This document shows, one piece after another, positions 1-20,152 of a stretch of DNA of 64,000 nucleotides; the stretch's first letter is position 1, and every line of letters begins with the position of its first letter. Below the pieces are notes generated by a model that was given only the letters and a program-made list of their open reading frames with translations, was not told the DNA's origin and made no database searches. The position numbers were made by a program, and so were the translations under genes. This DNA comes from Bacteroidetes bacterium B1(2017) (GTDB taxonomy: Bacteria; Bacteroidota; Bacteroidia; UKL13-3): positions 209,098 through 273,097 of the forward strand of contig NKJG01000002.1 of the NCBI GenBank assembly GCA_002256395.1. The letters are read 5' to 3'.

Positions 1-3000
1 TTCAATAGCAAGTATTTCCTTACCCATAAGGTCAATCAGTTTTAGGGTTGAACTCGATTTCGAATTTGTGTTTATTGAAATACTCGTATTTGTAGGGTTA
101 GGATAAACCGAAATGCTTGGCTCAATGAATTCTTCACTTGATAAGCCTGTAGAATGAGGCCTATTATTGCTTATCCAAATGCTAAACCTATTATTACCAA
201 ACGAGGCTGTATCTGAAGTTACATTGAATGATTTTATCAAAGGTTCTCCATTTAGTAGTTGAGTTTCGGTATGCGTGTATTTATCTAATAAAAATACTTG
301 GTAGAAATTAGGAAGACTTAGGCTTTCAACCTTTATAGTGTAGTTTCCTTGGGTGGCTGAACCTAAGCCTAGCGGAAGCTCTTTTTCACTATTATCTTCA
401 ATATTAGCAAGTGTGTTAATAGCATATTTCTTATTGTTTACATCATAGGAATAAATATTTACACCACTAGCATTTCCCATTTTTTCGGCATCTGCATCTT
501 CGTCAAATAAATCGGTTTTGTTTCGGTTAAATATAATTAAATGTTCATCCGATTTAGAGTTACTATTACTAAGGGTTAATCTAATTTCAAAGGGTTTATT
601 TCCCTTAAACATATTCGATGCAGCACTATTTGTTTTAGCAGCCTCTGTAACAGAAAGGATAGGGGATGCTGCATTTGCTTTTACAAAAAATGCTTGTCCA
701 GATGCAATAATATTTGTACCACCATTGGTTCCACCCGATCCTGTAACATAAGTTGCATATCTATCGTTGGCTGGATCAAAAATCCAAGTAGTTCCCAAAA
801 CATTTGTCTTCGTCCAACTTGCCTGATCCCAATCAATAGCGCATGGGTAAGGGTTTCCAACTAAATTCCATCCATCACCATTTAACGCATTGTAAGTAAC
901 AGCAAAAGTATGGTCTCCTGTTTTAACTGTACCACTCGCACTTAATGTTACATCAATGGGTGTATTGTTAGTTCCATCCAATAAGCCACATCCTTGGCTT
1001 CTATTACCTCTTATATAAACATTATAACCTGTTCCTGCAGTTAAGTTAGTAGAGCCAGTATTTGGGATGCTTGTCCAGGCGTTGGTATATACTGTGGCAC
1101 CACTAATATTAGGAGTGGTTGCAACAGGAGTTGCTGTTGCTTCATTAAATGTAAGCATACTTCCGTTATTATTAGTAGAAGCATCAAATCCATTTGAATG
1201 TGCTGTTAAGCTTGGGCAAGCAGTTCCACCAGAACCAGAACCAGTTATATAAATTTGTTGTTGCCAAGATGAGGCAATGGTAGGACCAGAGCTAAAAGGA
1301 GCCGCAAGATTTCTGTATTTTCTTCCAGATGTAGCAGATGGAATATAGCGTTCTACGGTCACATTTCCTGTAATAGAACCACTTGAACCAATAGAGGCAG
1401 TTCCAGTATTATCTGATTTTAAAGTTAATAGTCCGGCTGTGGTCAAGGTTCCGCTAAATGTTATTTGGCCACCAGCAGAAACAGATTTCATACCTGCACC
1501 ACTTATGGTAATATTTACATAAGCCCTAGGTGTTACTGTTTGAGCCGATGCAGAGGTATATTCAATAGTTGAGCCAGAGCCTAACGTAATAGTAGGTGTA
1601 TTAGAAGTACTAATTGTAGTGCTTGTACTGCCGCTAAATCCTTCTGTTTTCGATGTCTTTAAAATTCCATTTATGGTAAAGGTAGCAGACGCACCTGAAG
1701 CAATAAGTTGATTATTTGCAGCATCTAAAATACCACCACTTGCAGCAACAGTTAAGTTTGTAGATGCACCTAAATTTAAGTTGCCAACTAAGGTTGCAGA
1801 AGTAGAAGAACTAATAGTAATACCATTTGTGTTTGTTAAGGTTAATGATGTTCCGCCATTTGTTCCTAATTGAGCGCTAGTTCCTGTAATACTCCATACT
1901 CCTGTTCCAGATGCAGTCATTGCATTGGTTCCACCCAAACCAACAATTCCATATTTAAATGTTTTTGTACTATTACCTGTCCAACCTAAAGTTACCCCGC
2001 TTGCAAGTTCAACCCTGCCATTAAATGTAGTTTGAGTGCCAGCTCCCAAAGAAGCAATGGTTTGTCCAAATCTAAAAATTGGAATTTCTGTGGTTACATT
2101 AGGGAAGTAGGTAACACCTGATGTAGATGGTGAAGAAGATAAATTATACAATAAAATACCACCCGTTTCATAAACATGAGTAGAAGCATTTACGCCAGCA
2201 TTATTAGCAGTTAATCCAGTAGATTCAACACTTAGAATTCCACCGGTTTTAATTCTAATGTTTGAACTAGCAGTATAGGTAAAAGTACTTACAGTGTAAT
2301 TTACTCTTCCACCTGATTCAATACTAATATCATCGCCCGTTCCATTATTAACTGTCATTGCAGCAGAAACTATTAAAATTCCTCCACTTTGAACCACAAC
2401 CTCATCTACAGTAGCTGTTGCAGAAACAGTAACCGTATGGCCGTTTTGAATAGTTATTGTACTATTTGAGCTACTTGGTAAATCTGCAGAAAGTGTTACT
2501 GTTGCATATGTAGAACCACCATTTGCCGATCTTTCCCATGTTTCGCTACCAGAAGTTACTCCATTCCAATTTCCAGTGCGTAATGAGCGATAAATATAAC
2601 TTGCAGGACCCGCATTAATATCAAAACTAGAGCTTGTTACATCCCAGTCAAGAGTAGAAGTTCTTTCGGCATTTAAAGTTAAGGTAGTTCCTGTAACAGT
2701 ATGTGTTAAGCCAGCAAAAGTAGCTAAACCAGAACTAGCTGCCACATCAATAGGTGAACCTGTTAAGGTTCCAGTTGATGTAATTCTAATGGAGCTTGTA
2801 AAATCTAAATCTCTATTTCCATTCCCATCATTTGCACTAACTGTTACATCTGTCATAGCTACATTGCTAGTTGTATTAGCAGGTTGAGCAACAAATGCTA
2901 AAGCTGTTGCAGTAACTTCTAATCTATTCACATCGACGCTTGTAGAAGAGGCTGCAGCCCCAGCACTAGCTGATGCAAAACCAGATAGAGTAGCTGTTGA

Positions 3001-5925: not shown

Positions 5926-6208
5926 ATACTATTTTTTATTTTTGATTTCAGTTACTTTAGAGTTAAAATCAAAATCTTACTACTTAACTCGGGGTAAAAG
6001 TCATCTCACTACTTCAACTAAACATCATCCTAATGTTTCGTTTATGTTAATGAAAAAAAATGACTTCATACAGGTGTATTTTATATCCTTCAAAGGACGC
6101 ATACCCCAAAATAATTTGCAAGCAATAGCCATCAACTAAATCCAGTAAACCGGATTTAATTTTAGTTTTAGAAAATTAAAAATGCTTAAGATGCCTAATG
6201 GGCGTAGG

Positions 6209-7450
6209 TTACAGAGTTTGGCTCGAACCCATTTCTTGTATAGCTAAATAAGCCATAAGTCCAGACCCAAGAGCTAATGCGTCTTCATCAATATCAAAAG
6301 TAGGGGTATGCACACCCGAAATAATACCTCTTGATTCGTTCCTTGTTCCTAATCTATAAAAACACGCAGGTGCAACTTGTGAGTAATATGAAAAATCTTC
6401 GGCAGCCATCCAAATATCTAAATCTAACACATTTTCTATACCAAGATATTCTTGCGCAGCAGTTTTTGCTCTAGCTGTAACTTCTGGGTTGTTTTTAAGA
6501 AACGGATATCCTTTTCTAATTTCAAAATCAACAGAACCGCCAAATCCTTCAGCAATACTAGTAGCTGTTCTTAGCATCAATTCATGTGCTTTTGCTCGCC
6601 AGTTTTCGTCAAGAGTTCTAAAGGTTCCTTCTAAATAAACCTCATTGGGTATAACATTAGTAGCTCCATTGGCTATTACTTTTCCAAAGCTTAATACACT
6701 TGGAATAATAGGATTACTTTGTCTACTTACCAATTGCTGCAAAGCTGTAATCATTTGTGCTGTAATTGCAATTGGGTCAATACATAAATGAGGCATGGCA
6801 CCATGACCACCTTTTCCTTTTACTGTAACATATAATTCATCAGTGCTTGCCATATATAAACCACTTCTAAAACCTACCTTACCAACAGGTATAAGTGGCA
6901 TTACGTGCTGACCCAAAATTGTGTTAACAGTAGGGTTTTCAAGAATACCTTCCTGTATCATTAAGCTTGCACCGCCAGGAAGTTTTTCTTCTCCAGGTTG
7001 AAATATAAGTTTAAATGTGCCTTCAAAAAGATCTTTATGATCCATCAATAATTTAGCAACGCCCAATAAACAAGTTGTATGAACATCATGGCCGCATGCA
7101 TGCATTACTCCGTGGTTCTTTGATTTATATTCCACCTCATTGGCTTCAATTATTGGAAGGGCATCCATATCGGCGCGCAGGGCAATGGTTTTAAAGGAAG
7201 GATTTTTTCCTTCAATTAATACTTCCAATCCAGTTACTGCCATTTCCTTTATTTGAGTAATTCCCATTGCCTCTAACTGGGCCCTCACATAGGCAACAGT
7301 TTCAAATTCTTTAAATGAAAGTTCTGGATGACTATGGATATGCCTGCGAATGGTAATTAATTGGTCAGAAAGTGAATTTGCTTGTGATTTAATGCTTGCT
7401 AGTATGCTCATAACTAAAGCAAAAGAAATCATAAAACTCCATTTTACCAA
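6209..7450 (-). CDS. Peptidase M20D-family amidohydrolase (aminoacylase / hippurate-hydrolase-like), secreted
   Basis: 413 aa with an N-terminal signal peptide. It carries the M20 metal-binding motifs HACGHD and MDALP and the dimerisation-domain pattern. Confidence 0.8.
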   Translation of the reverse strand: MVKWSFMISFALVMSILASIKSQANSLSDQLITIRRHIHSHPELSFKEFETVAYVRAQLEAMGITQIKEMAVTGLEVLIEGKNPSFKTIALRADMDALPIIEANEVEYKSKNHGVMHACGHDVHTTCLLGVAKLLMDHKDLFEGTFKLIFQPGEEKLPGGASLMIQEGILENPTVNTILGQHVMPLIPVGKVGFRSGLYMASTDELYVTVKGKGGHGAMPHLCIDPIAITAQMITALQQLVSRQSNPIIPSVLSFGKVIANGATNVIPNEVYLEGTFRTLDENWRAKAHELMLRTATSIAEGFGGSVDFEIRKGYPFLKNNPEVTARAKTAAQEYLGIENVLDLDIWMAAEDFSYYSQVAPACFYRLGTRNESRGIISGVHTPTFDIDEDALALGSGLMAYLAIQEMGSSQTL

Positions 7451-7541
7451 AGACTGACATTATTCATGTAGTTTCAATCGAATGCTTACATTTGATTTGT
7501 CGTTTAAACCTACATAAATTACTAATTCATAAGTAAAGAGT

Positions 7542-7790
7542 ATGCAACTAAATAAAAACATCGCCGTGAGTGAAAACGGATTTATTTTCAACCCGGTTAG
7601 TGGTGATTCATTTTCAACCAACCCAATTGGTCAAGAAATTATTAGGTTAATGAAGGATCAAAAGGATAGAAAAGAAATTACAAAAATTCTGGCAGATAAG
7701 TATGCTGCCGATGATGCCACTATTGAAAAAGATTTAAGTGATTTTTTTCAAATGTTATTGTCGTACCAATTAATAAACGACCATGAATAG
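7542..7790 (+). CDS. PqqD-like small protein (RiPP recognition element fold)
   Basis: 82 aa with a PqqD-type pattern (NIAVSENGFIFNPVSGDSFSTNPIGQEIIRLM...ILADKY.....IEKDLSDFFQML..QLI). It ends in ...DHE, a C-terminal Glu. Its stop overlaps the next ORF's start (ATGAATAG). Confidence 0.6.
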   Translation: MQLNKNIAVSENGFIFNPVSGDSFSTNPIGQEIIRLMKDQKDRKEITKILADKYAADDATIEKDLSDFFQMLLSYQLINDHE

Positions 7791-8832
7791 GCGCAAAATA
7801 ACCGTTGCCGTTTCTGGATTAAATAATATTGATAGTCCAGGCCCAGGTATACCCGTTATTAGAGCATTAAAAGAAAGTACAGAGTTTGATGTTCGAATAA
7901 TTGGTTTGAGTTACGAAACTCTTGAACCGGGATTATATATGCACGATTTGGTTGATAAATCTTATTCTATTCCATTGCCTTCTTCTGGTATGGATAGCTT
8001 ATTGGTGCGTTTAGAATATATACATTCGAGAGAAAAGTTAGATGTTATTATCCCAAATTTTGATGCCGAATTGCATAGTTTTATTAAGCTTGGACCTATT
8101 CTAAAATCAAGTTATAATATCGCTACCTTCATGCCAGATCTAGAAACATTTGAATCGCGACATAAGTCAGTTCTGTATGAATTTGGTGAAAAGAATGAGG
8201 TAAAAGTGCCTAAAGCGAAAATGATTTATTCACCTGCTGAAATAGGAGCAATAGGTCAAGAACTAGGTTACCCTTTAGTTGTAAAAGGTAAATACTATGA
8301 TGCAAGTATTGCGGCAACTCCAGAGCAAGCTGTGAACTATTTTCATAAAATTGCCAATAAATGGGGACTTCCAATTATCCTTCAAGAATTTGTTTCGGGT
8401 AATGAGGTAAATGTTACTGCAATAGGCGATGGAAATGGAAATTGTATTGGAGCTGTTCCTATGCGTAAGTTATATATTACGGATAAAGGAAAGGCTTGGG
8501 CAGGTATTTCATTATTAGATGAGGAGCTTATAAAAATAGCTAATCGTGTAATTGCAAATTCTAAATGGCGCGGAGGTTGTGAACTTGAATTTATAAAATC
8601 AAAAGAAGGAGAGTATTACCTATTAGAAATGAATCCTCGTTTTCCAGCTTGGGTTTATTTAGCTGTTGGTTGTGGTCAGAACCACCCCGAAGCACTTGTG
8701 AAATTGGCACTAGGCGAAGATGTTAAACCCTATGAAACCTATGAAAGCGGGAAGCTCTTTGTTCGCTATTCGTTTGATCAAATAGTTAGCCTTCAAGAAT
8801 ATGAAAAAATTTCAACCTTGGGCGAACTATAA
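7783..8832 (+). CDS. ATP-grasp domain protein (CPSase/PylC-like carboxylate-amine ligase)
   Basis: 349 aa with a pre-ATP-grasp N-domain. It has a GYPLVVKG ATP-binding region and the E(L/M)NPRF motif typical of CPSase/biotin-carboxylase-type ATP-grasp enzymes. It overlaps the PqqD-like gene by 8 nt. Confidence 0.75.
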   Translation: MNRRKITVAVSGLNNIDSPGPGIPVIRALKESTEFDVRIIGLSYETLEPGLYMHDLVDKSYSIPLPSSGMDSLLVRLEYIHSREKLDVIIPNFDAELHSFIKLGPILKSSYNIATFMPDLETFESRHKSVLYEFGEKNEVKVPKAKMIYSPAEIGAIGQELGYPLVVKGKYYDASIAATPEQAVNYFHKIANKWGLPIILQEFVSGNEVNVTAIGDGNGNCIGAVPMRKLYITDKGKAWAGISLLDEELIKIANRVIANSKWRGGCELEFIKSKEGEYYLLEMNPRFPAWVYLAVGCGQNHPEALVKLALGEDVKPYETYESGKLFVRYSFDQIVSLQEYEKISTLGEL

Positions 8833-8893: not shown

Positions 8894-10252
8894 ATGGCAA
8901 AGTTAAGTTATGAGCGTCCAGTTATTCAAAAGTTAAATACTGGAAGTATGAATAAATTTGGTACCCGCACAGAATATGCTCCGGTTACCCATATAGAAGG
9001 TGTGGCTGTTAAAGATATTATTGCAGAATATGGTTCGCCAGTTTTTGTTATTAGCGAGCAGCAAATACGAAGGAATTATCAGCAAGCTGTTAGAGCGTTT
9101 AAAACCAGATATCCTAAGGTTCAATTTGCCTGGAGTTACAAAACAAATTACATGAATGCGGTTTGTAATGTGTTTCATCAAGAAGGTTCATGGGCAGAGG
9201 TTGTATCCATTTTTGAATATAAAAAAGCCATAGGTAATGGCGTTCCAGGAAATAAAATTATTTTTAATGGTCCCGATAAATCGGAGGAGGATTTAATACT
9301 TGCGGTTAAAAATAAATCGCTTATTCATATTGATCATTTCGACGAGCTATATATGTTAATTGAAGTTGTTCAGAACCTAAAAATGAAGGCTTCAGTTGCC
9401 ATTCGTGTGAATATGGATGTAGGCGTATATCCAATGTGGGATCGCTTTGGATTTAACTATGAAAATGGCCAAGCTTGGAATGCTATAAATAAAATTATGA
9501 GTCAGCCAGAGCTAGAATTAAACGGTTTGCATTGTCATATTGGAACCTATATGTTAACCTCTGCAGCCTACGCAACTGCGGCTTGGAAGCTGTGCGATTT
9601 GGCTATTAACATAAAGTCTAAATGGAATAAAATAATCCAATACCTTGATTTGGGTGGTGGCTTTGCCTCAGCTAATACGTTGAAAGGTAGTTACCTTCAG
9701 GGGCCAGATATAATTCCAAGTATGGAAGATTATGCAGAAGCAATTTCATCAACCATCCTAAACTTTGGTTTCAAACCGAATGAATTGCCTACCCTGTTTT
9801 TAGAAACTGGCAGAGCTTTAATTGATGATGCAGGCTATCTTTTAGGTTCGGTAATTGCCACCAAACGCTTAAGCGATGGTCGTCGTGCCACCATTATGGA
9901 TTTTGGTGTGAACCTATTGTTTACTGCTTTCTGGTATAACCACAAAATTTCACCTGCACAAGAATTCTCCCACCATACAGAAGATATGGTAGTTTACGGG
10001 CCACTTTGCATGAATATTGATTGTATTAGAGAGAGTGTAAACCTACCATTATTAAGCAAAGGCGATCAAGTGGTGGTTCATAAAGTAGGAGCATACAACA
10101 TGACTCAATGGATGCAGTTTATTCAAATGCGCCCTAATATTGTTATGGTTGATGCTAAGCAGCAAGTTCATCTTATTCGTCATAAAGAATCGGTTGAAAC
10201 CATGTTGCAATATGAGCATATGCCTGCTCATCTTGAAAAGTTTGAGTTGTAG
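8894..10252 (+). CDS. PLP-dependent decarboxylase, Orn/DAP/Arg decarboxylase family 2 (alanine-racemase-like TIM barrel)
   Basis: 452 aa. It carries the family motifs DLGGGF and HCHIGT (HxHxGS-like), and the length matches DapDC/ODC-type decarboxylases. Confidence 0.75.
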   Translation: MAKLSYERPVIQKLNTGSMNKFGTRTEYAPVTHIEGVAVKDIIAEYGSPVFVISEQQIRRNYQQAVRAFKTRYPKVQFAWSYKTNYMNAVCNVFHQEGSWAEVVSIFEYKKAIGNGVPGNKIIFNGPDKSEEDLILAVKNKSLIHIDHFDELYMLIEVVQNLKMKASVAIRVNMDVGVYPMWDRFGFNYENGQAWNAINKIMSQPELELNGLHCHIGTYMLTSAAYATAAWKLCDLAINIKSKWNKIIQYLDLGGGFASANTLKGSYLQGPDIIPSMEDYAEAISSTILNFGFKPNELPTLFLETGRALIDDAGYLLGSVIATKRLSDGRRATIMDFGVNLLFTAFWYNHKISPAQEFSHHTEDMVVYGPLCMNIDCIRESVNLPLLSKGDQVVVHKVGAYNMTQWMQFIQMRPNIVMVDAKQQVHLIRHKESVETMLQYEHMPAHLEKFEL

Positions 10253-10296: not shown

Positions 10297-12486
10297 TTGA
10301 ACATGAAAAAAGAACTTAATTGGCTATATTTTTTGGATACTGTACTGAACAGTTATAGCCAAATATTTTTTTCTTTAAACAAGCTATTTGCTAGCACTAT
10401 ACTTTTGGTAACATTTTTTGATCCAAAGGTTGGGTTATTTGGTCTAGTATCTGTTTTGCTAGTGAACCTAATGGCCTTTGCCTTTGGATTTAATAGAAAA
10501 GAAATAAGAGAAGGTATTTTTGGCTTTAATGCCTTGCTATTTGGATTGGCCATGGGTTTTAGATTCGAGATAAACGGAGCATTCCTTGTTTTGTTTTTTG
10601 TTTCGAACCTAAGCTTATTAGTTACAACAGCCGTCTTTAAGGGTAGTTTTGGTAAGGTACAATTGCCCTTTTTAAGTTTCCCGTTTTTACTAAGCTATTG
10701 GATAGTTTGTCTTGCCGTTAGTAGCTTAAGTAATATTCATTTGGCTGCGCCTGTGGTTTATTCTGAAATAGGAGTGCCTGGAGTTCAAAGTTTTTTTGAG
10801 ACTCTAGTGCATAGTTTGGATACTGTTTCAATGCCTGTATTAATTAAAATTTTCTTCAAAACTTTGGCTGCAACATTTTTTATTTCATCGGTTTTAGGTG
10901 GTTTATTAATTGCTATTTCTTTGTTTTTATTTTCGCGTATAACCTTCTCCCTTGCTGTGTTTGGGTTTACTGCGGCATTTTATGTGTATGATATTTTTGG
11001 TGCAGATATTTATCAACTTTCAGATAATATGGTTGGGTCGAACTATATCTTTTTTGCTATTGCGATAGGTGGCTTTTACCTCATTCCAAATTTGTATTCG
11101 TATGCAAGTAGTTTGGTTTTGGTACCCGTTTTATTATTAATGCAAATTGCCTTTGATAAATTATTTACTGGTTTTGAACTTAAAACCTTTACCCTTGCAT
11201 TTAGTGTTTTAACCTGTATCTTTTTATATGCCCTTCATCAAAGATGGATGCATAAATTTTTACACCTTGTTACCATTCAATATTATTCGGCCGAAAAAAC
11301 AGTTTATAAATATTTAAATGCCTTAAGTAGATTCAATCAAGCACACTTAAAGAAATTTGCTTTGCCTTTTTGGGGTGAGTGGCAGGTAAGCCAAGCATAT
11401 GATGGTAAAATAACTCATTTGGGCGATTGGAGTAAGGCTTTAGATTTTGTGGTGGTGGATGAAAAGTTAAAAACCTATAGAGAACCTGGACTTCATCTAA
11501 ATGATTTTTATTGCTATAATAAACCTGTTTTAGCTCCTGCCGATGGATATGTATATGCTATTTTTAACCATATAGATGATAATGAAATTGGGGTGGTTGA
11601 TACCGAAAAAAATTGGGGAAATAGTATCCTTATAAATCATTTGGATGGGGTGTTTTCACAAATAAGCCATCTTAAAAAGGACTCTTTTAAAGTAGCAGTT
11701 GGTGACTTTGTACAAAAGGGAACTTTATTGGCAGCATGCGGCAGCAGTGGGCGTTCACCAGAGCCTCATATGCATTTCCAGCTTCAAACAACCCCAACCT
11801 TAGGGGCAAAAACCTTAGCTTATCCCTTGGCCTATTACTTAGAACTTGGAATTACTAAAGAATGGGAGTTAAAACAATTTGAAGTACCCAAACAAGATGT
11901 AATCATTTCAAATGTTATGCAAGAAAAGCTATTGCATGATGCGTTTGATTGGATGCCTGGTAAACAATTTCATTTCGTAATTGAGGGTAAATCTGATTTA
12001 ATTGAATGGGAGGTTTTTACAGATGAATACAATAGATTATACCTTTTTGAACCTAAAACAAACAGCTATGCCTATTTTGTAAACGATGGCACTCGCTTTT
12101 ATTTCACCGACTTTGAAGGAAGTAGAAAGAGTAGTTTGTTTCAATTATACACTAGTTGCTATTCAGTATTATTAGGTGTATATCCAAAAATAAATTTAGG
12201 AGACAAGCTACCATTGATTCATTTTAATCCGCCTATTTTAATTTGGTTTCAAGATGTTTTGGCTCCATTTTATTTATTTACGGAAGCACGTTTTTCAAGT
12301 AAAATTAGAAAGGTAGACCAATTATTAGCCCCACAACGAATAGAAATTGAAAGTAATGTGGAGGCACGTTTATTAAATCAGAAGTTTAAAAGCAGCACCT
12401 ATTCTATTGTTATTACAGAAAAAGGTGTTTCAGAATTAACATTACTTAATGGCCCTAAAACAGAAAAATGGATATGCGTAGATTAA
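10297..12486 (+). CDS. Polytopic membrane protein: N-terminal urea-transporter (UT)-like domain fused to C-terminal M23 (LytM) metallopeptidase domain
   Basis: 729 aa. The N-terminal ~330 aa are polytopic with UT-family-like motifs (SQIFFSLNKLFAS..., GIFGFNALLFGLAMGF). The C-terminus carries the M23 signature (HLDGVFSQISHL...GSSGRSPEPHMHFQL, i.e. the HxxxD...HxH arrangement). Confidence 0.7.
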   Translation: MNMKKELNWLYFLDTVLNSYSQIFFSLNKLFASTILLVTFFDPKVGLFGLVSVLLVNLMAFAFGFNRKEIREGIFGFNALLFGLAMGFRFEINGAFLVLFFVSNLSLLVTTAVFKGSFGKVQLPFLSFPFLLSYWIVCLAVSSLSNIHLAAPVVYSEIGVPGVQSFFETLVHSLDTVSMPVLIKIFFKTLAATFFISSVLGGLLIAISLFLFSRITFSLAVFGFTAAFYVYDIFGADIYQLSDNMVGSNYIFFAIAIGGFYLIPNLYSYASSLVLVPVLLLMQIAFDKLFTGFELKTFTLAFSVLTCIFLYALHQRWMHKFLHLVTIQYYSAEKTVYKYLNALSRFNQAHLKKFALPFWGEWQVSQAYDGKITHLGDWSKALDFVVVDEKLKTYREPGLHLNDFYCYNKPVLAPADGYVYAIFNHIDDNEIGVVDTEKNWGNSILINHLDGVFSQISHLKKDSFKVAVGDFVQKGTLLAACGSSGRSPEPHMHFQLQTTPTLGAKTLAYPLAYYLELGITKEWELKQFEVPKQDVIISNVMQEKLLHDAFDWMPGKQFHFVIEGKSDLIEWEVFTDEYNRLYLFEPKTNSYAYFVNDGTRFYFTDFEGSRKSSLFQLYTSCYSVLLGVYPKINLGDKLPLIHFNPPILIWFQDVLAPFYLFTEARFSSKIRKVDQLLAPQRIEIESNVEARLLNQKFKSSTYSIVITEKGVSELTLLNGPKTEKWICVD

Positions 12487-13802
12487 TATTTTTTCTTTTC
12501 ATTTGGCCCGTCTTAATAAACGCTCAACCACTTACCTACACTAGTGTTGAGGTTAAATCTTTAGAGTATTACAATGATTTTGAGTATAAAAAATTAACGA
12601 AACTAGGTGAGGAGGCTTTGGATCAAAAAATTGATTTTTACGACCTACGAGTGCGAATGGGAATTGCTTATTATAAAATGAACAAATTTGAACCAGCCAC
12701 CATTCATTTTATGAAAGCAGTTGAAATGAATCCATCTGAACCTGATATTTTATCCTATGCCTATAATTGCTTGCTAATTACTGCTCAATTTAATAGAGCA
12801 AATGCATTCCTAATTCAATATCCAACTACAAGTGCAAGCATAAAACCAAAATCAACAGGTTTAGGAAGCGTTGAAATAGAAACCGGTTTAATCAATACGA
12901 ATTTAGCATCTAGTTATTCGGGAGAGATTTTGCGAGAATCAGGTTCTAATTATGCCTCTGGTAATTTCTTTTCTAAAATGGCCTATACTCGTGTATATGC
13001 TGAGGGATTAGCCTCACCCGACCTTAGATGGCATTTAGGTGGAAATATTTTTCAATCAACCCACCTGAGTAAGCTTGAGTTTTTTGATAAGAATACAGAG
13101 GTAGAAAAGTCGAGCTTAAATTATCAATTCAATTTTGGGTTTACTAAATTGCTTGCACACGGATGGCAAACAGGTATTGGCATTGCTTATTATCGTCAAA
13201 ACTTCCCATTCCCCTACGTTTCATCAACTATTCAGCCACCACCTCCAAATTCGGTATTTAAGGATTCCATTGAAACATCAAACGCTGTTAGTATTAGCGC
13301 TCTTATTTCAAAACGCATGAAATATATAGAACCTATTTTAGTGCTTAATTACGGCGATTTCGATCTTAAAAATAGATTTCAAGCAGAATTAGGAATAACA
13401 ACTTTCCCATTGGGTCATCAACAATTATACACCTACACGAGTGGCTCGTTTATTAGAAGTGATGGGAGTAATTCATATGCCTTTAATCAAAAAATTGGCT
13501 ATTCATTTAAGAATTCAATCTCCCTTGAGGGAAGCTTTTTAAAAGGTTCTTTAGATAATTATATGTGCAATATGGGCTTCTTAACCTTAAATACATTTGA
13601 CCCTTTGAAATGGTCGGCTGGAGCCGATTTAAATTACAGAATAAAGAGGTGGATTATTACACCTGGCTATAGAATTCAAAAAAGAGCTGGATCTTATGAA
13701 AGCGAATCTGCTCCAATTGGTCCTGTTCAACCAACTATAAAGACGAACAATTTTTCTTATTCAACAAACTTATTTTTTATCACACTAAAATGTCAATTTT
13801 AA
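12468..13802 (+). CDS. Secreted TPR-like N-domain + predicted outer-membrane beta-barrel protein
   Basis: 444 aa. The start overlaps the upstream stop by 19 nt. It has a signal peptide and TPR-like helices at ~40-110. The C-terminal ~300 aa show alternating-hydrophobic beta-strand character and end in a terminal Phe (..LKCQF), typical of OMP barrels. Confidence 0.4.
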   Translation: MDMRRLIFFLFIWPVLINAQPLTYTSVEVKSLEYYNDFEYKKLTKLGEEALDQKIDFYDLRVRMGIAYYKMNKFEPATIHFMKAVEMNPSEPDILSYAYNCLLITAQFNRANAFLIQYPTTSASIKPKSTGLGSVEIETGLINTNLASSYSGEILRESGSNYASGNFFSKMAYTRVYAEGLASPDLRWHLGGNIFQSTHLSKLEFFDKNTEVEKSSLNYQFNFGFTKLLAHGWQTGIGIAYYRQNFPFPYVSSTIQPPPPNSVFKDSIETSNAVSISALISKRMKYIEPILVLNYGDFDLKNRFQAELGITTFPLGHQQLYTYTSGSFIRSDGSNSYAFNQKIGYSFKNSISLEGSFLKGSLDNYMCNMGFLTLNTFDPLKWSAGADLNYRIKRWIITPGYRIQKRAGSYESESAPIGPVQPTIKTNNFSYSTNLFFITLKCQF

Positions 13803-14401
13803 AACAACTAGTTCTTGGAATGCTTCTAGTGGCAACCATTAACGCTAACGCCCAAAACTTAAGTGAGATTTTTGCTAAGAGTTATGCTGCAGAAAAAAAC
13901 GCTAACTATACCGAAGCAATTGCAGCTATGCAAGCACAAACGTATACCTCTTCATATGAAGTAAATTTACGATTAGGTTGGCTATATTATGCCGATAAAA
14001 AGCATAGCGAATCTGTAGCTTATTATCAAAAAGCAATTGCCTTAAAACCATTGGCTACAGAGCCATTATGGGGGATAATTTATCCTTTAAGTGTGCAAGA
14101 AAAGTGGACAGGAGTGGAGCAAGCATATAAAGATATTTTAAAGCTTGATCCAAGAAATTCAAAAGCCAATTACTACCTAGGTTCGATCTACTTTTATAGA
14201 AAAGATTATACCACTGCTAAAAAATATTTGCAAGAAGTTATTGCTCTTTATCCATTTGATAAAGATGCCAATTTACTTTACGGCTGGAGTCAATATTATC
14301 TTGGAAATACAAGTGAGGCAAAGAATGCCTTTAACCATGTTTTAAATAGTAAACCAGATGATTCCTCGGCTAAAGAAGGGTTGGCACTGTTAAATAAGTA
14401 G
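13790..14401 (+). CDS. Secreted tetratricopeptide-repeat protein
   Basis: 203 aa with a signal peptide (..ATINANAQ). It has multiple TPR-like W/Y-rich helical repeats. It overlaps the upstream gene by 13 nt. Confidence 0.6.
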   Translation: MSILKQLVLGMLLVATINANAQNLSEIFAKSYAAEKNANYTEAIAAMQAQTYTSSYEVNLRLGWLYYADKKHSESVAYYQKAIALKPLATEPLWGIIYPLSVQEKWTGVEQAYKDILKLDPRNSKANYYLGSIYFYRKDYTTAKKYLQEVIALYPFDKDANLLYGWSQYYLGNTSEAKNAFNHVLNSKPDDSSAKEGLALLNK

Positions 14402-14429: not shown

Positions 14430-14816
14430 GTGAAAGATTTCAAGAAATATTATGTCATTCCTGCACCTCCAGAAGATGTGTATTTGGCTCTTACCAATGA
14501 ACCAACTATGATGCTTTGGACAGGTGATCAGGCTAGTTTTGTAGCAGAGGTAGGTTCAGAATTTTCTATGTGGGATGGAAGTATTGTTGGAAAAAATTTA
14601 GAACTTGAGCTTAATAAAAAAATTGTTCAAGAATGGTTTTTTGGAGAGGAACCAACCGAAACTCCAAGTATTGTAACCCTTAAGTTGCATGTTCATAACC
14701 AAGGAACATCAATTGAGGTAAGGCATACTAATATTCCCGACGAAGAATATGATGATATTATCGATGGTTGGACAAACAATTATATGGCAGAACTCTATGA
14801 GTTTTACGATGAATAA
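14430..14816 (+). CDS. SRPBCC-superfamily small protein (Aha1/AHSA1-like)
   Basis: 128 aa. Length and pattern fit the Bet v1-like/AHSA1 fold. It is the last gene of the same operon, 28 nt after the TPR gene. Confidence 0.45.
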   Translation: MKDFKKYYVIPAPPEDVYLALTNEPTMMLWTGDQASFVAEVGSEFSMWDGSIVGKNLELELNKKIVQEWFFGEEPTETPSIVTLKLHVHNQGTSIEVRHTNIPDEEYDDIIDGWTNNYMAELYEFYDE

Positions 14817-14822
14817 TTGGTA

Positions 14823-15458
14823 TTAATTATTAATTTCTCCCTTGCCTTCACGAATTACAATTGGGTCATCCGAAGTGCAATCAATAATGGTTGAGGGGAT
14901 ATTTCCACCCGAACCACCGTCGATAACCATATCCACTTGGTGTTCAAATTTTTCATGAATCTCCTCAGGATCGGTCATATATTCAATTATTTCATCCTCA
15001 TGATGAATGGTTGAAACAACAAGCGGCGAACCTAATTCCTTTATAATGGTTTGTGCAATGGTATTATCTGGAACCCTTATACCAATTGTTTTCTTGTTGC
15101 CAGCAAATAGCTTGCTTACATGGTTATTAGCCCTTAAAATAAAGGTAAAGGCACCAGGCAAATTATTTTTTAACAGCCTAAATACATTTTTATCAATAGC
15201 AGCTGTTACATCAGAAATATTTGCCAAATCAGAACATAATAGGGAGTAATTTACCTTTTCTGGTTTCTTTCCCATAATCCTGCTCATGCGCTCTATTCCT
15301 TTTCTCGAATCCATTCTACAAGCCATAGCATAAATCGTATCCGTAGGAATAATTATTACCCCATCCGAATTCAAAACATCAAGCACCTTTTTTAGGTCGC
15401 GTGGATTTGGATTTTTTGTATGTAGTGCGAGTAGCATGATATAAATGAAAAAAGGCAC
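14823..15458 (-). CDS. tsaC: L-threonylcarbamoyladenylate synthase (TsaC/YrdC family)
   Basis: 211 aa. It carries the YrdC-domain motif ..IIIPTDTIYAMAC.. (the PTDTVYGL equivalent). Confidence 0.75.
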   Translation of the reverse strand: MPFFIYIMLLALHTKNPNPRDLKKVLDVLNSDGVIIIPTDTIYAMACRMDSRKGIERMSRIMGKKPEKVNYSLLCSDLANISDVTAAIDKNVFRLLKNNLPGAFTFILRANNHVSKLFAGNKKTIGIRVPDNTIAQTIIKELGSPLVVSTIHHEDEIIEYMTDPEEIHEKFEHQVDMVIDGGSGGNIPSTIIDCTSDDPIVIREGKGEINN

Positions 15459-15516
15459 TGAGTAATGAAAAGGAAGTAATCCTCACTCATTATTCAGTGC
15501 CTAATTTAGCTAAAAA

Positions 15517-16737
15517 TTATAATTTTCCTGCAACAGCTTGCTGAACTAAATCAGCAGCTTCTTTTAATACAATAGCAGAGTATACTTTCAATCCCGACTC
15601 ATCAATTAATAATTTCGCAGCTTCGGCATTGGTACCTTGCAAACGAACAATAATTGGAACTGGAATATTGCCAATGCTCTTATAAGCATCAACAACACCT
15701 TGTGCAACACGGTCGCAACGTACAATTCCACCAAAAATATTAATTAAAATAGCCTTTACATTAGGGTCTTTCAAGATAATTCTAAAACCAGCTTCTACAG
15801 TTTTTGCATTGGCAGATCCACCCACATCAAGGAAGTTTGCAGGATCGCCACCAGATAATTTAATAATATCCATAGTAGCCATTGCTAAACCGGCACCATT
15901 AACCATACAACCAACGTTTCCGTCTAATTTAACAAAGTTAAGATTGTATTCAGCTGCTTCAACTTCGGTAGCATCTTCTTCAGATGTATCGCGCATTGCT
16001 TCGTAATCTGGATGACGGTATAAAGCGTTGTCATCAATATTTACTTTCCCATCAACTGCAATAATCTTATTGTCTGAAGTGCGCAATACAGGGTTAATTT
16101 CAAACATGGCCGAATCAGATTTGTCGTATGCTTTATATAAAGCGGTAACAAATTTCACCATTTGTTTAAATGCCTCGCCTTCGCAACCTAAGTTAAAAGC
16201 AATCTTACGAGCTTGAAAACCTTGTAAACCCACTTTAGGATCAATGGTTTCTTTATGAATCAAATGTGGAGTATGTTCTGCAACATGCTCAATGTCCATT
16301 CCACCTTCGGTAGAGTAAACAATAATGTTTTTACTTTGACCTCTATCAAGCATTACACTCATGTAATACTCCTTAGTTTCGCCAGGACCTGGATAGTATA
16401 CGTCTTGGGCTACCAAAACTTTACTTACTAGTTTTCCTTTAGGGCCAGTTTGTATTGTAACCAAAGTTCCTCCAAGGATATTTCCTGCAATTTCTTTTGC
16501 CTTATCGGCATTTTTTGCAACGGCAACACCTCTTTGTTCTTTTCCAACAATATTACCTTTCCCACGGCCACCAGCATGAATTTGGGCTTTTATAACCACA
16601 AAATCACTTCCAAATTGATCTTTCAATTTTAATGCAGCAGCATGGGCTTCATCAGCAGTCTCGGCAACTATGCCTTCCTGAACGGCAACGCCAAATGATT
16701 TTAAAATCTGCTTGGCTTGGTATTCATGAATATTCAT
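15517..16737 (-). CDS. sucC: Succinate--CoA ligase (ADP-forming) beta subunit
   Basis: 406 aa. The N-terminus MNIHEYQAKQIL... and the full-length pattern match SucC. Confidence 0.9.
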   Translation of the reverse strand: MNIHEYQAKQILKSFGVAVQEGIVAETADEAHAAALKLKDQFGSDFVVIKAQIHAGGRGKGNIVGKEQRGVAVAKNADKAKEIAGNILGGTLVTIQTGPKGKLVSKVLVAQDVYYPGPGETKEYYMSVMLDRGQSKNIIVYSTEGGMDIEHVAEHTPHLIHKETIDPKVGLQGFQARKIAFNLGCEGEAFKQMVKFVTALYKAYDKSDSAMFEINPVLRTSDNKIIAVDGKVNIDDNALYRHPDYEAMRDTSEEDATEVEAAEYNLNFVKLDGNVGCMVNGAGLAMATMDIIKLSGGDPANFLDVGGSANAKTVEAGFRIILKDPNVKAILINIFGGIVRCDRVAQGVVDAYKSIGNIPVPIIVRLQGTNAEAAKLLIDESGLKVYSAIVLKEAADLVQQAVAGKL

Positions 16738-16801
16738 TTCTTATAAAATTTGTTGCGAAAATACGTTTTCAAACAACAATTGAAAGTATTTATCTGCTAT
16801 T

Positions 16802-18265
16802 GTGCAAAACACTTTTCTCTTTGTTACCTTCGGATTTGCAAAAATGAAATCAATTCTAACTTTAACTTACACAAAATCATGGATTTTGGTGCTCGTTACC
16901 GGATTTTTCGCCTTTTTGTTTCATGTCCAAAATCCTGTTGTTAGGGAGTGGGATGAGGCAACTTATGGCATAAATGCCTACGAAATGAGTCAGTCGAACA
17001 ATCCAATTGTGGTTACTTTTAACCACCAAAGCGATGTTTACAACTCAAAACCACCTTTTGGAGTCTGGTTAATGAGCCTATCTACAAAAATATTTGGAGT
17101 GAATACGTTCTCCTTACGATTTCCTTCAGCTCTTTTAGCCTACCTCTTTTCATGTTTTCTGTTTTATTTCATTTATAAAGAGTTTAAAAATTTAGAATGG
17201 GCATTGTTTGCGTCGCTTATTTTAATTGGAAGCATTGGCTTTACGGGTTGGCACGAAGCTCGTAGTGGCGATTTTGATGCCATGGTGGCCGTTTTTATGG
17301 CTCTTGCTATTCTCTATTTTTCAAAGGCAATTTTGTTACATGAACCTCAAAGGCTCTTACTATTCTTTCTTTTTTTAACTTTAGCCTGCCTAACCAAAGG
17401 CGTTTATGGATTAATTATTTTACCTGGATTATTTCTATTTACAAGTAGTCAAAAACAACTAAAATGGAGCGTGTCGCAATGGCAATTATATATTGGTTTT
17501 GTTGCTTTCTTAATCTCATTTATGGGATATTATTTTCTGCGAGAAAGGATGAGTCCAGGATACTTTAAAGCGGTTTTAGAAAACGAGGTAGGGGAGCGTG
17601 TTTTTTTAGAAACCAATATTCATAAAACAGAAATTCCGTTTTACTATCATACAGTTAAATTACTTGTTTATCGCTTTCAACCTTTCATACTTTTACTGCC
17701 TTTTTTTGCAGTTAAATTTTGGTTCGAACCAAGCACACATGAAAAAAGATTTTTGACAGCTATTGTTTTAAGTGCAGCAAGTATTTGGTGTGTCATTTCA
17801 TTTTCAAAAACCAAATTAGTTTGGTATGATGGGAGCTTGTATCCTTTGCTTGCTATATGTTTGGGGTGGTTTATATCCGTTCAATCGCAAAAGCTTAGAG
17901 CATATGCTACGCCTGCCTTGCTCCTTATTGCGACCTTTGTATTTTATTTAAATTACACTGAAAAAGACAGCTTTGAGTTTCCTCATTTTTTAAAAGAATT
18001 GCGAACACAAAAACAAGTTATCGAACCATTAAAAGTATATAGTACCAAATTTGAACATCCAATTAGATATTACCTTTTACAAGATAGTTTGGCTTGTTAT
18101 AAATCGAGTTATACCAACGATATTAAATCGCTTAATGTTGGCGATTGGCTAATTGTAAATTTAGAAGAACAACCTATCTCAAAATTTGATTCTATTTTTG
18201 AGGTAAATCCAATTTTTGATAAAGGTAAATATGTGCTACTGGTGCTCGAAGAAAAACCCAATTAA
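16802..18265 (+). CDS. Lipid-carrier-dependent glycosyltransferase, GT39/ArnT/PMT-like polytopic membrane protein
   Basis: 487 aa with ~11 TM helices. The N-terminal loop carries a DE/aromatic-rich motif (REWDEATYG...KPPFG) typical of the ArnT/PMT family. Confidence 0.6.
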   Translation: MQNTFLFVTFGFAKMKSILTLTYTKSWILVLVTGFFAFLFHVQNPVVREWDEATYGINAYEMSQSNNPIVVTFNHQSDVYNSKPPFGVWLMSLSTKIFGVNTFSLRFPSALLAYLFSCFLFYFIYKEFKNLEWALFASLILIGSIGFTGWHEARSGDFDAMVAVFMALAILYFSKAILLHEPQRLLLFFLFLTLACLTKGVYGLIILPGLFLFTSSQKQLKWSVSQWQLYIGFVAFLISFMGYYFLRERMSPGYFKAVLENEVGERVFLETNIHKTEIPFYYHTVKLLVYRFQPFILLLPFFAVKFWFEPSTHEKRFLTAIVLSAASIWCVISFSKTKLVWYDGSLYPLLAICLGWFISVQSQKLRAYATPALLLIATFVFYLNYTEKDSFEFPHFLKELRTQKQVIEPLKVYSTKFEHPIRYYLLQDSLACYKSSYTNDIKSLNVGDWLIVNLEEQPISKFDSIFEVNPIFDKGKYVLLVLEEKPN

Positions 18266-20031
18266 TAATAGAAATTTCCAATATTATAGCGCAGTTCCAT
18301 GGCTTCAATTTGAGTGCGTTTTCCAAATATCACATCCAAATACTCCTCATCAAAGGATAGGGTAATAAACTCTTCTTCTAATTTCGCATCACCAGCTATT
18401 AAATTTAATAAATCCGAAATCGATTTATAGTCGTAAATGTCTCCAATATCTTCGGGTTCCATGGTGTAAACCTTATTGTTGGCAAATACGCTCACCGTGT
18501 AAGTGTAAGTTTCAACGGTTTCTGTTTCTGTTGCTTTCGATTCAATTAAATAGGGCCCAATTTTACCTTTACTTAATTCTAAAAAGGAACTTATGAGTGG
18601 CTCATAATTTAATGGTAAATCGTTGCCAATTAGGCTAACGCTTTTGTAATTTCCAATATGCTCTAAAACTCTATAAATATTGCTTCCCGAAGGTTTAGAT
18701 AAGGCAGTATCTTTAGATAGAATATCAATAAGTTTCACTTCATTTTTAGTTTCAACGATACCAATTTGGGTTAAATCATTAACTAATGCTTCTACATTTT
18801 GGGTGTTAATTTCATAGTAGATCAATAGTTCTTTATAAGTTTTTTCGTCCTTTATATATGGGGTTCTATTAACAATAAAACTATCAGCCCCCATATCAAT
18901 TAGCGCCTTTACAACTGTTTCCTTTTCGTAATTTGAAGTATAAGAATTGCCTGTTACCTGCTTAAGTAATTTAATTGGAATTTCAGGGTTATGATTTGCC
19001 TTATAAAAATCAATTGCTATATCTATTTCTGAGCTATAAGTATCTTGGTCACCCAGTTTTTCAAGCAAAATTGGCTCGTATTTCTGTCTGTCGCAGCGCA
19101 TAATAAACTCATTTGGTAGTTTACCTAGCGCTTTGTTTTTTGCTAATATTTTTGCTAACGGAAGTGCATTTTCTGATCCATATTTTAACAAGACGTTTGA
19201 AATTTGATAGGCTGGATTATTACTCGCGTATCCTTTCAAACTCGTAAACTCATTTCGTGCAAGAATCTTCAATTCGTATATTTTGGTGCAAATGTCAACA
19301 CTAATTTGGCGGTTACCAGTATAGTTATTTGTAGCAAACGATTCCAAACCATTGGCAATCCAATAGTCTTTCTTTAAATTGAATTTTCTTTCCAAAATCA
19401 TCTGCCCCATCCATTGCAAAATAGAAGTGTTAATGCCTTCCTCCCCAAGCCAATAAAACAATCTTCCATTTTCTACTTCACCCTTTGTTAATAGATGATT
19501 TTCGAAAGCCTTTTGGTAACCTGGTAGTTGATAAAAACCTGCTATTTGGGCAACTGAAACTTCATCGGCTGTATCTTCTAAGTTCATTAAAATTGCCGAT
19601 GATAAGAGTGTATTTGATAAAAGTTGTTTACACTCTTCATATACAATTGCATTCGACGATAAATCACTATAAATGCTATTTCGTAATTCGGCACTATCTC
19701 CTTTCAAATCAATTAAAACTTGTTTAAGGGCATTGGTATCTCCTAAAACATATCTGGTAGCTGCACTTAATTCATTAAATTTTTGTTGCTTTTTTAATTT
19801 TCTAGCTGGCTCATTATCTAGGTATTCCTGCCTCATAAGCTTTACCAATGCCGAATCACTAATAATTACAATATGTGTCGAACCAGGTTCTTCCTCCTCA
19901 TAGTCTGTTGTTGTAATTTCTACTTTGGGAGATTTTTTGTTCTTAAGTATTTCTTTCTTTAGCAAATCCCAATATTGGGCATGAACCATGGAACTACTTA
20001 ATACACAAATTAAAAATACAATTGTCCTCAT
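18262..20031 (-). CDS. Hypothetical secreted protein
   Basis: 589 aa with a signal peptide (..SSMVHAQ). I recognise no domain. Confidence 0.4.
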   Translation of the reverse strand: MRTIVFLICVLSSSMVHAQYWDLLKKEILKNKKSPKVEITTTDYEEEEPGSTHIVIISDSALVKLMRQEYLDNEPARKLKKQQKFNELSAATRYVLGDTNALKQVLIDLKGDSAELRNSIYSDLSSNAIVYEECKQLLSNTLLSSAILMNLEDTADEVSVAQIAGFYQLPGYQKAFENHLLTKGEVENGRLFYWLGEEGINTSILQWMGQMILERKFNLKKDYWIANGLESFATNNYTGNRQISVDICTKIYELKILARNEFTSLKGYASNNPAYQISNVLLKYGSENALPLAKILAKNKALGKLPNEFIMRCDRQKYEPILLEKLGDQDTYSSEIDIAIDFYKANHNPEIPIKLLKQVTGNSYTSNYEKETVVKALIDMGADSFIVNRTPYIKDEKTYKELLIYYEINTQNVEALVNDLTQIGIVETKNEVKLIDILSKDTALSKPSGSNIYRVLEHIGNYKSVSLIGNDLPLNYEPLISSFLELSKGKIGPYLIESKATETETVETYTYTVSVFANNKVYTMEPEDIGDIYDYKSISDLLNLIAGDAKLEEEFITLSFDEEYLDVIFGKRTQIEAMELRYNIGNFYY

Positions 20032-20152
20032 TTGCTGGGGTGAAAGGTTGGGTTAAACAAACATAAGTATTGAATTGGTAAATTTTGGTGTCTTAGCAAT
20101 AAAATATTCTTAATTTATGTTGAACTCCTTGCGAATTACTTATTTTTGATAC

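Follow-up and report, generated by a model that had tools for sequence, protein, structure and literature searches.

In Bacteroidota, a self-contained module of six genes probably carries a small product of its enzymes through the cell envelope, and a TPR-armed outer-membrane barrel together with a soluble periplasmic TPR protein appears to provide the periplasmic and outer-membrane part of the route. Export is the favoured direction, and the reading of the two proteins as the outer leg of a small-product export route is given a probability of about 0.5; for this reading we infer the physical coupling of the components, the direction of transport, the cargo and the role of one barrel loop. The routes by which Bacteroidota pass small metabolites over the outer membrane are poorly known, and no paper on the cassette was found in the literature. 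The module brings together an outer-membrane protein family without a Pfam model, an unusual protein in which a urea-transporter fold is joined to an M23 peptidase predicted to face the cytoplasm, and a trio of a PqqD-like protein, an ATP-grasp ligase and an FslC-like decarboxylase. If the reading is true, this would be a new envelope-crossing pathway pointing to an undiscovered class of metabolite or peptide, for which six genes in fixed order provide a clean genetic handle. The genes lie as follows in the window (the whole stretch of 64,000 nucleotides analysed), with the parts of the barrel protein given below its gene:

6209..7450, minus strand: M20 amidohydrolase, accessory, divergently transcribed, found in 8 closely related loci
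7542..7790, plus strand: PqqD-like peptide-binding (RRE) protein, 82 aa (PqqD E 4.2e-12; lasso B1 protein TbiB1 E 5.7e-11)
7783..8832, plus strand: ATP-grasp ligase, a ligase-type enzyme by sequence matches
8894..10252, plus strand: PLP-dependent fold-III decarboxylase by Pfam, closest to the N-citrylornithine decarboxylase FslC
10297..12486, plus strand: inner-membrane fusion protein, 729 aa: urea-transporter fold at aa 9-314, M23 metallopeptidase domain at aa 361-500, beta-rich C-terminal domain at aa 510-729
12468..13802, plus strand: TPR-barrel outer-membrane protein, 444 aa: signal peptide, periplasmic domain of 3 TPRs, beta-barrel of 14 strands
12468..12527, plus strand: putative signal peptide of the barrel protein, aa 1-20, cleavage at about INA/QP (sequence reading; low-pLDDT model helix 3-16)
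12537..12818, plus strand: N-terminal TPR-like domain of the barrel protein, six helices, aa 24-117 (TPR match, AlphaFold2 model, conservation)
12864..13799, plus strand: 14-stranded beta-barrel, aa 133-444, with C-terminal Phe (AlphaFold2 model)
13548..13604, plus strand: barrel loop between strands 11 and 12, aa 361-379, motif NYMxxMGFLTLNTFDP (conservation, AlphaFold2 model)
13790..14401, plus strand: soluble periplasmic TPR protein, 203 aa, with a signal peptide (...INANA/QN), TPR matches and no lipobox
14430..14816, plus strand: AHSA1/SRPBCC protein, accessory, adjoining the cassette in the close clade and at locus L072 but not elsewhere

Three points have direct support: the folds assigned to the barrel, to the TPR proteins and to the transporter fusion; the strict linkage of the genes; and the closest relatives of the enzymes. 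Linkage was counted in 62 species loci found via the ATP-grasp gene and having enough downstream DNA. The barrel gene directly follows the transporter fusion in 61 of these, all six genes are contiguous, with the TPR gene directly 3' of the barrel gene, in 55, and the TPR gene lies a few kb upstream, within about 5 kb, in five more. Co-occurrence with the ATP-grasp gene across genomes, which the first-pass annotation had named as a check, is thus found for both envelope genes, and since an outer-membrane barrel and a periplasmic TPR protein keep tight synteny with the genes for the ATP-grasp enzyme and the decarboxylase, a dedicated outer-membrane step is the most economical reading. The order PqqD-like protein, ATP-grasp ligase, FslC-like PLP decarboxylase, urea-transporter-fold/M23 fusion, TPR-barrel and TPR protein recurs in L001-L005, L007, L009 and L090, including barrel relatives just about 20-26% identical, and all five contigs looked up for distant barrel relatives (about 20-26% identity where measured) carry the same cassette. 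When a collection holding a single genome for each species was scanned with the ATP-grasp protein, at least 580 stretches matched; the cassette is widespread in Bacteroidota, occurring in at least several hundred species. At L072, no gene for the transporter fusion, the barrel or the TPR protein lies within 8.5 kb of the three cytoplasmic genes, an observation that speaks against the module reading.

The open reading frames of the 444-aa and 203-aa proteins are both present at the coordinates listed above, and the product of the former is 100% identical to a 'hypothetical protein' at NCBI from the MAG Bacteroidetes bacterium B1(2017). The first-pass annotation had described the 444-aa protein as a signal peptide, TPR-like helices and an outer-membrane barrel ending in Phe, and this architecture is borne out. 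The N-terminus, MDMRRLIFFLFIWPVLINA followed by QP, reads as a signal peptide. The AlphaFold2 model, likewise proposed as a check and built on an alignment of 9 sequences (mean pLDDT 81.1, pTM 0.69), predicts a barrel of 14 strands in residues 133-443 behind six helices in residues 24-117, the helices forming three TPR-like pairs, or about three repeats. Residues 60-90 match a TPR (TPR_1 E 1.3e-5, under Pfam's cut-off), the C-terminus ...FFITLKCQF has hydrophobic residues at positions -1, -3, -5, -7 and -9, and Pfam OMP_b-brl is matched by two of the 43 barrel-family members (best E 2.2e-8), with no Pfam family existing for the barrel itself. A crude dyad-hydrophobicity test of the predicted strands was not significant, the observed value being reached in 229 of 2000 shuffles, so the case for a barrel is built on the model together with fold matches and evidence from the family. 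Conservation is highest in the TPR domain, where R63 never varies and Y97, Y99, A84 and L60 each reach 93% conservation or more; the conserved positions comprise TPR groove residues, a periplasmic turn (P314/G316/N317) and the strand 11-12 loop. This loop is gap-free and the most conserved element of the barrel (N375 98%), the remaining outer loops being variable and gapped, and it may form a lumen plug or constriction; it is of low confidence in the model. The TPR arm is missing from short, about 300-aa, barrel-only orthologues at five loci (L034, L054, L063, L064 and L069) and is therefore not essential everywhere.

The expectation that a periplasmic TPR protein follows the barrel was likewise confirmed, the 203-aa product having a signal peptide, no lipobox and TPR_2 matches in three stretches (E 1.9e-17). 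Among 65 orthologues, 62 have a hydrophobic N-terminus and only 4 a lipobox-like motif. Its gene overlaps the barrel gene by 13 nt and seems from this arrangement to be translationally coupled to it. Upstream, the 3' end of the transporter-fusion gene overlaps the barrel gene by 19 nt, and the fusion belongs to a family that comprises, at 90% identity, at least 1,916 clusters. Urea transporters are marked by the UT fold together with a two-part urea recognition motif (Q-Pa/T-5a and Q-Pb/T-5b); they are passive and bidirectional, and their pore is very narrow.

The cytoplasmic enzymes have recognisable relatives. In NCBIfam, the decarboxylase scores 238 bits for FslC and 224 bits for lysA, both under the cut-off (500 for FslC), and against the PDB it matches 7kh2 (E 1.9e-61) ahead of the DAP decarboxylase 1twi (E 2.4e-46). 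The substrate of FslC is an N-acylated ornithine. The ATP-grasp ligase is 62-92% identical across the fetched loci, and its start is overlapped by 8 nt by the stop of the PqqD-like gene. A PqqD-like protein normally means a peptide substrate, yet no conserved precursor ORF adjoins the cassette in about 70 loci, which counts against the export reading, and peptide cargo is hard to reconcile with the narrow urea-transporter pore.

In the proposed mechanism, the PqqD-like protein, the ATP-grasp amide ligase, the FslC-like decarboxylase and the M23 peptidase domain constitute the cytoplasmic half of the module and would make a small amide-linked, decarboxylated product, candidates being a diamine with an acyl or aminoacyl group, or a short (modified) peptide with a diamine cap. 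Passage through the inner membrane would be provided by the urea-transporter-fold domain to which the peptidase is fused, and the product would then be received in the periplasm by the TPR protein and the TPR arm of the barrel. The barrel would let it through the outer membrane, with the strand 11-12 loop probably acting as constriction or gate. A small solute rather than a polymer is suggested as cargo because the inner-membrane partner is a urea-transporter-fold channel.

The same domain logic of TPR scaffold, outer-membrane barrel and additional periplasmic TPR protein, the last recalling AlgK, occurs in the synthase-dependent exopolymer porins PgaA, BcsC, PelB and AlgK-AlgE, likewise encoded in the operon that they serve, and the first-pass annotation had suggested exit by this type of route, in which a polymer made by the operon runs through both TPR scaffold and barrel. 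Foldseek lists BcsC (E 4e-8) and PelB (E 2.8e-7), and some ATP-grasp enzymes synthesise poly-amino acids, cyanophycin for example, though the match to the cyanophycin-type enzyme is weak here (E 0.002). Strand count and gene content nevertheless largely refute this explanation, which we regard as hardly credible: the barrels of PgaA, BcsC and PelB are 16-stranded and that of AlgE 18-stranded as opposed to 14 here, and these families have long TPR arrays forming a superhelix, whereas the window protein has about three repeats in aa 24-117. No polymer synthase or glycosyltransferase occurs in any cassette and no synthase-like cluster recurs in the flanks (some clusters checked against Pfam), the BCSC_C, PgaA-type and Alginate_exp models match neither the window protein nor, at E <= 1, the 43 family members, and the inner-membrane partner has the fold of a urea transporter, which suits small solutes. 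Closer in layout are the type XI, Slam and NilB (DUF560) proteins of Proteobacteria, which join a periplasmic N-terminal TPR domain of ~100-140 aa (~140 aa in DUF560) to a 14-stranded barrel and have their cargo gene adjacent (PMC8406197), as the translationally coupled 203-aa gene is here. A translocon moving a protein to the surface, perhaps the 203-aa protein itself, is still very improbable: PF04575 (DUF560) matches neither the window protein (E <= 0.1) nor any of the 43 members (E <= 1), and the described systems are proteobacterial (PMC8406197), whereas this family belongs to Bacteroidota. The likeness meant here is one of domain architecture, solved Slam structures being absent from the fold matches of the window barrel. 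Known cargo is a surface lipoprotein or a hemophilin-like protein with a beta-barrel handle, unlike the all-alpha TPR neighbour with its type I signal peptide and no lipobox. The strict linkage to enzymes and a transporter fusion, where Slam proteins adjoin lipoprotein or hemophilin-type cargo genes, would also go unexplained.

The best structural matches of the barrel model are the uptake channels FadL, TodX, OmpG and CymA, and FadL and TodX share its 14 strands at 8-12% sequence identity. The barrel and TPR proteins might thus import an external small or hydrophobic compound that would cross the inner membrane through the urea-transporter-fold channel and be processed, assimilated or detoxified in the cytoplasm by the M23, ATP-grasp and decarboxylase functions, a direction compatible with passive, bidirectional urea transporters and with the SRPBCC/AHSA1 proteins, typical binders of hydrophobic ligands, beside some cassettes. 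We consider uptake unlikely on balance, as a ligase that consumes ATP, a chaperone like PqqD and a decarboxylase of biosynthetic type look more like a biosynthetic than a catabolic set, and conserved catabolic or assimilatory enzymes are absent from the cassette, in contrast to the fatty-acid or hydrocarbon catabolism that surrounds FadL and TodX. FadL is marked by a kink in strand S3 that makes a lateral opening, and its barrel is plugged by an N-terminal hatch; the N-terminal 117 residues of the window protein are instead signal peptide and TPR-like helices with no hatch equivalent, and none of the 43 barrel-family members matches Toluene_X. Alternatively, the barrel may be no conduit at all, serving with the TPR protein as envelope anchor, sensor or assembly factor while the product leaves otherwise. 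TPR domains are generic protein-interaction modules, the TPR surfaces here are more conserved than the barrel wall, and some FadL-like barrels of Bacteroidota (BamG, PorV) are subunits of complexes rather than channels. This is improbable, however, given that the barrel is kept where the TPR arm is lost, that the gap-free conserved loop inside it suggests a functional lumen or gate, and that the M23 domain, which might have required positioning at the envelope, is predicted to be cytoplasmic.

For the export reading, the nearest known logic is that of the Francisella fsl rhizoferrin locus, comprising the ligase FslA, the decarboxylase FslC, transporters and the outer-membrane protein FslE. Both loci pair an amide-forming ligase with a decarboxylase acting on an N-acylated amino acid, dedicated transport and a lineage-specific outer-membrane barrel, FslC being closest to the window decarboxylase. 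The ligase of fsl is, however, an IucA/IucC-type synthetase rather than an ATP-grasp enzyme, its transporter is of the MFS rather than a urea-transporter/M23 fusion, and, unlike fsl, the cassette has a PqqD-like protein and shows no TonB-type uptake or iron regulation. A more elaborate form of the export reading, tentative and rather doubtful, envisages an unrecognised Bacteroidota-wide make-and-export system with scaffold-based chemistry. The ATP-grasp enzyme would add an amino acid such as ornithine, lysine or diaminopimelate to a carboxylate, either on a peptide bound to the PqqD-like protein or at the acidic C-terminus of that protein itself, and from the residue so attached the FslC-like decarboxylase would generate a diamine. 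At the mouth of the channel to which it is fused, the cytoplasmic M23 domain would then clip off the small product, and the new family of TPR-armed 14-stranded barrels would, together with the periplasmic TPR protein, carry it out of the cell as a signal or antimetabolite under LytTR, AraC or ECF control. Around the constant six-gene core, flanking genes and regulators vary by lineage, the recurrent ones being regulators, M20 and AHSA1.

The 444-aa outer-membrane protein (the TPR-barrel) and the 203-aa TPR protein are encoded by the last two genes in a row of genes that share one direction and partly overlap, the barrel gene overlapping that of a urea transporter (UT)-M23 fusion by 19 nt and the TPR gene overlapping the barrel gene by 13 nt. 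Scanning for sigma-70 promoters and terminators gave none exceeding shuffles. The six genes from the PqqD-like protein to the TPR protein form the cassette considered here.

Genes of the cassette and its immediate flanks in the window
6209-7450, minus strand: M20 peptidase, flanking gene
7542-7790, plus strand: PqqD-like protein
7783-8832, plus strand: ATP-grasp ligase
8894-10252, plus strand: PLP decarboxylase
10297-12486, plus strand: UT domain and M23 peptidase fusion, 729 aa
12468-13802, plus strand: TPR-barrel, 444 aa (open reading frame, signal peptide, AlphaFold2 model)
13790-14401, plus strand: TPR protein, 203 aa (open reading frame, signal peptide without lipobox, strong TPR matches)
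14430-14816: AHSA1/SRPBCC protein, flanking gene

The first-pass annotation read the 444-aa frame as a signal peptide, TPR helices and an outer-membrane barrel, which the AlphaFold2 model and Pfam matches bear out, and its separate periplasmic TPR protein of 203 aa is likewise upheld by a signal peptide and strong TPR matches. In NCBI the 444-aa product has an identical counterpart, a hypothetical protein from the MAG 'Bacteroidetes bacterium B1(2017)'. The window protein opens with a signal peptide of the typical kind (MDMRRLIFFLFIWPVLINA|QP), gives a weak Pfam match to TPR at residues 60-90 and ends in ...FFITLKCQF, and its AlphaFold2 model (nine homologues, mean pLDDT 81.1) places six helices at residues 24-117, followed by 14 beta strands at 133-443. 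Pfam OMP_b-brl is matched by two of 43 family members, with a best E of 2.2e-8. The alternating (dyad) hydrophobicity of the predicted strands was not significant in a simple test and is thus not counted as support for the barrel. Among 65 orthologues of the 203-aa protein, 62 have a hydrophobic N-terminus and four a lipobox-like motif.

Conservation across 43 diverse members of the barrel family is concentrated in three spots: helices 3-5 of the TPR part, where R63 is invariant and Y97, Y99, A84 and L60 are kept in at least 93%; a single periplasmic turn (P314, G316, N317); and the loop that joins strand 11 to strand 12 (aa 361-379; N364, G370, N375, D378), which reads NYMxxMGFLTLNTFDP in the close clade. 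This loop aligns without gaps and is modelled at low confidence by AlphaFold2, the remaining long outer loops being gapped and variable; it would enter the barrel lumen as a constriction or gate. Five loci (L034, L054, L063, L064, L069) encode a barrel-only protein of about 300-324 aa without the N-terminal TPR arm, the profile match being confined to the barrel part and a separate TPR gene kept downstream, so the arm is dispensable in some lineages.

The linkage of the barrel to the enzymes extends well beyond close relatives. An exhaustive profile search for the barrel gave 124 representatives at E < 1e-30, mostly of 430-470 aa and aligned end to end; a profile search with a diverse alignment (A2) against a word-indexed database gave 10 proteins only. 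Close homologues at 49-51% identity (P0004, P0008, P0005) lie in the same eight-gene arrangement as in the window. Four distant representatives were examined in their genomic context, and around three of them (P0014, at 26% identity to the window barrel, P0121 and P0152) the six-gene core stands between unrelated flanks; the fourth, P0060, lies on a short contig where just the cassette's last three genes are visible. The ATP-grasp protein, scanned against one genome per species, gave at least 580 confirmed matches, and the record titles listed for them are nearly all of Bacteroidota, with a few odd MAG labels. Profiles of each cassette protein were then run over 80 loci, 62 of which continue for 5.8 kb or more beyond the ATP-grasp gene on its downstream side. 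In 61 of these 62 the barrel gene lies directly 3' of the transporter fusion, which confirms the synteny with the ATP-grasp gene whose examination in relatives had been suggested at the outset. All six genes are contiguous in 55, the TPR gene lies a few kb upstream in five, one locus ends before the PqqD gene, and one (L072) has the three cytoplasmic cassette genes only. Conserved linkage despite variable flanks marks the six genes as a self-contained module.

The flanking regulators vary by lineage (L007, L009, L016-L029, L031-L087, L090), with a LytTR response regulator beside the cassette in 25 loci, 11 of which add a PF06580 histidine kinase; 15 loci have an AraC-type regulator there, and nine have both an ECF sigma factor and a Spy/CpxP-like protein. 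The M20 and AHSA1 flanking genes are limited to the close clade. Ten loci, and also L090, carry the 203-aa TPR gene twice. The sole exception to the linkage, L072 (9403-13746), lacks the UT-M23 fusion as well as the barrel and TPR genes: its PqqD-like, ATP-grasp and decarboxylase genes lead into a LytTR two-component system (histidine kinase plus regulator) and an MFS transporter behind it, and an ArsR-type regulator and a tandem AHSA1 protein are encoded upstream.

The transporter fusion is modelled (pLDDT 84.6) in three parts, the M23 and beta-rich C-terminal domains (aa 330-729) coming after the last helix of a complete UT fold. Two alignments of 38-39 orthologues show the metal and catalytic residues of its M23 domain (H374, D383, H448, H458, H491 and H493) to be invariant. 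The N- and C-termini of UT proteins are both intracellular, and the M23 tail of the fusion is accordingly predicted to face the cytoplasm, the more so since the positive-inside rule holds for the K/R-rich loops and for the basic linker that succeeds the final helix, and since no further hydrophobic helix is modelled beyond the UT fold. A peptidase so placed and joined to a channel would be unusual for the M23 family, and the role of a periplasmic peptidoglycan hydrolase is disfavoured, as the domain trails a complete UT fold by way of a K-, R- and H-rich linker. The UT domain (10297-11238) keeps the first-half channel motifs (SQIFF; LPFLSFPF). The urea recognition motif includes a second-half Gln and Thr (PMC11589576); these are not evident here, apparently replaced (AATFFI; LVPVLLLMQ), so by sequence the channel may serve a solute other than urea.

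Among the cytoplasmic enzymes, the decarboxylase has FslC, which decarboxylates N-citrylornithine, as its nearest match (7kh2, E 1.9e-61), and clearly weaker matches to DAP decarboxylases (1twi, E 2.4e-46) and BtrK (E 1e-23). The ATP-grasp enzyme has only remote solved relatives; its identity between the loci compared is 62-92%, far above the 20-50% of the barrel. The PqqD-like protein is similar to TbiB1, which binds lasso-peptide leaders (E 5.7e-11). Of 53 orthologues (from L001-L089), 39 have E or D as their last residue, its tail is otherwise variable, and its terminal codons overlap the ATP-grasp start (ATGAATAG); the acidic C-terminus recalls a LysW-type carrier or scaffold, a likeness confounded by the gene overlap, which may itself explain the acidic residue. 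A RiPP precursor adjoining the cassette was rejected: small ORFs of 12-90 aa with ATG starts, compared all against all across the flanks of about 70 loci, gave no conserved precursor-like frame, the sole matches being the PqqD gene and frames that are antisense shadows of conserved genes, and the intergenic gaps of 92 nt and 29 nt leave no room for one in the window.

The function of this widespread and rigidly conserved cassette, in which an M23 domain predicted to face the cytoplasm is joined to a UT channel, has to be read from its parts, and an envelope-crossing route is the most economical model. Beyond the folds, gene linkage and nearest enzyme relatives observed, we infer contacts among the parts, a direction of transport, a cargo and the gating role of the loop. 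An amide bond would be formed in the cytoplasm and a carboxyl group then removed; the decarboxylase's closest relative has an N-acylated ornithine as its substrate. Release of the product may fall to the M23 domain, the UT-fold channel would pass it, the two TPR units would take it up in the periplasm, and the 14-stranded barrel would carry it across the outer membrane. Export is favoured since the cassette enzymes look biosynthetic. Uptake through the barrel and UT channel is a serious rival, as the best fold matches of the barrel are all uptake channels and UT channels work both ways. The UT pore is also narrow, which argues for a small cargo, whereas the PqqD-like protein, M23 peptidase and TPR domains argue for a peptide-like one; assembly of a small product on a peptide or on the PqqD-like protein, followed by its cleavage from that scaffold, would fit both, though such a mechanism is speculative.

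By its modelled fold the barrel belongs with FadL, TodX, OmpG and BamG. Fold comparison scores are 20.2 and 20.1 for FadL homologues, 19.6 for TodX, 18.6 for BamG of the Flavobacterium johnsoniae BAM complex, 17.9 for CymA, 17.7 for OmpG, 13.9 for PorV and 12.4 each for PelB and PgaA, and Foldseek agrees, ranking FadL first (E 1.7e-10), with BcsC at 4e-8 and PelB at 2.8e-7. Pfam DUF560, Toluene_X, BCSC_C and Alginate_exp match none of the 43 members, and the family has no Pfam model. FadL membership fits by fold, but the barrel lacks a hatch and a Toluene_X match. The closest architecture is that of type XI secretion (Slam) proteins, which join a TPR domain to a 14-stranded barrel (PMC8406197), but there is no PF04575 match and the cargo type differs. 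The operon logic recalls both the exopolysaccharide TPR-porins and the Francisella fsl locus. The first-pass annotation took the TPR and barrel pair for an exopolymer-type exit; the dedicated outer-membrane component of a pathway is supported, on linkage and fold, and the exopolysaccharide porin is rejected, since the number of strands, the ranking of fold matches and the genes present speak against it and Pfam matches are lacking. As the defining membership tests failed for each family compared, the TPR-barrel is a new family of known architecture in an uncharacterised module, and a literature search for this gene combination found nothing relevant.

Downstream of the cassette, the genes at 14823-22537 are by appearance of ordinary housekeeping or envelope type.

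Genes downstream of the cassette
14823-15458, minus strand: Sua5/YciO/YrdC protein
15517-16737, minus strand: succinyl-CoA synthetase beta-like protein
16802-18265, plus strand: PMT_2 glycosyltransferase
18262-20031, minus strand: 589-aa protein, no Pfam match
20153-22537, plus strand: TonB-dependent receptor

Upstream, no Rfam matches occur in 1-7600, and RNA genes in 1-6200, a stretch without listed ORFs, were rejected in favour of a giant minus-strand frame. This single ORF (1-5928, at least 1976 aa) extends past the window start and is similar, in its C-terminal part, to a type IX secretion sorting domain (...SISVYPNPTNTSISI...).
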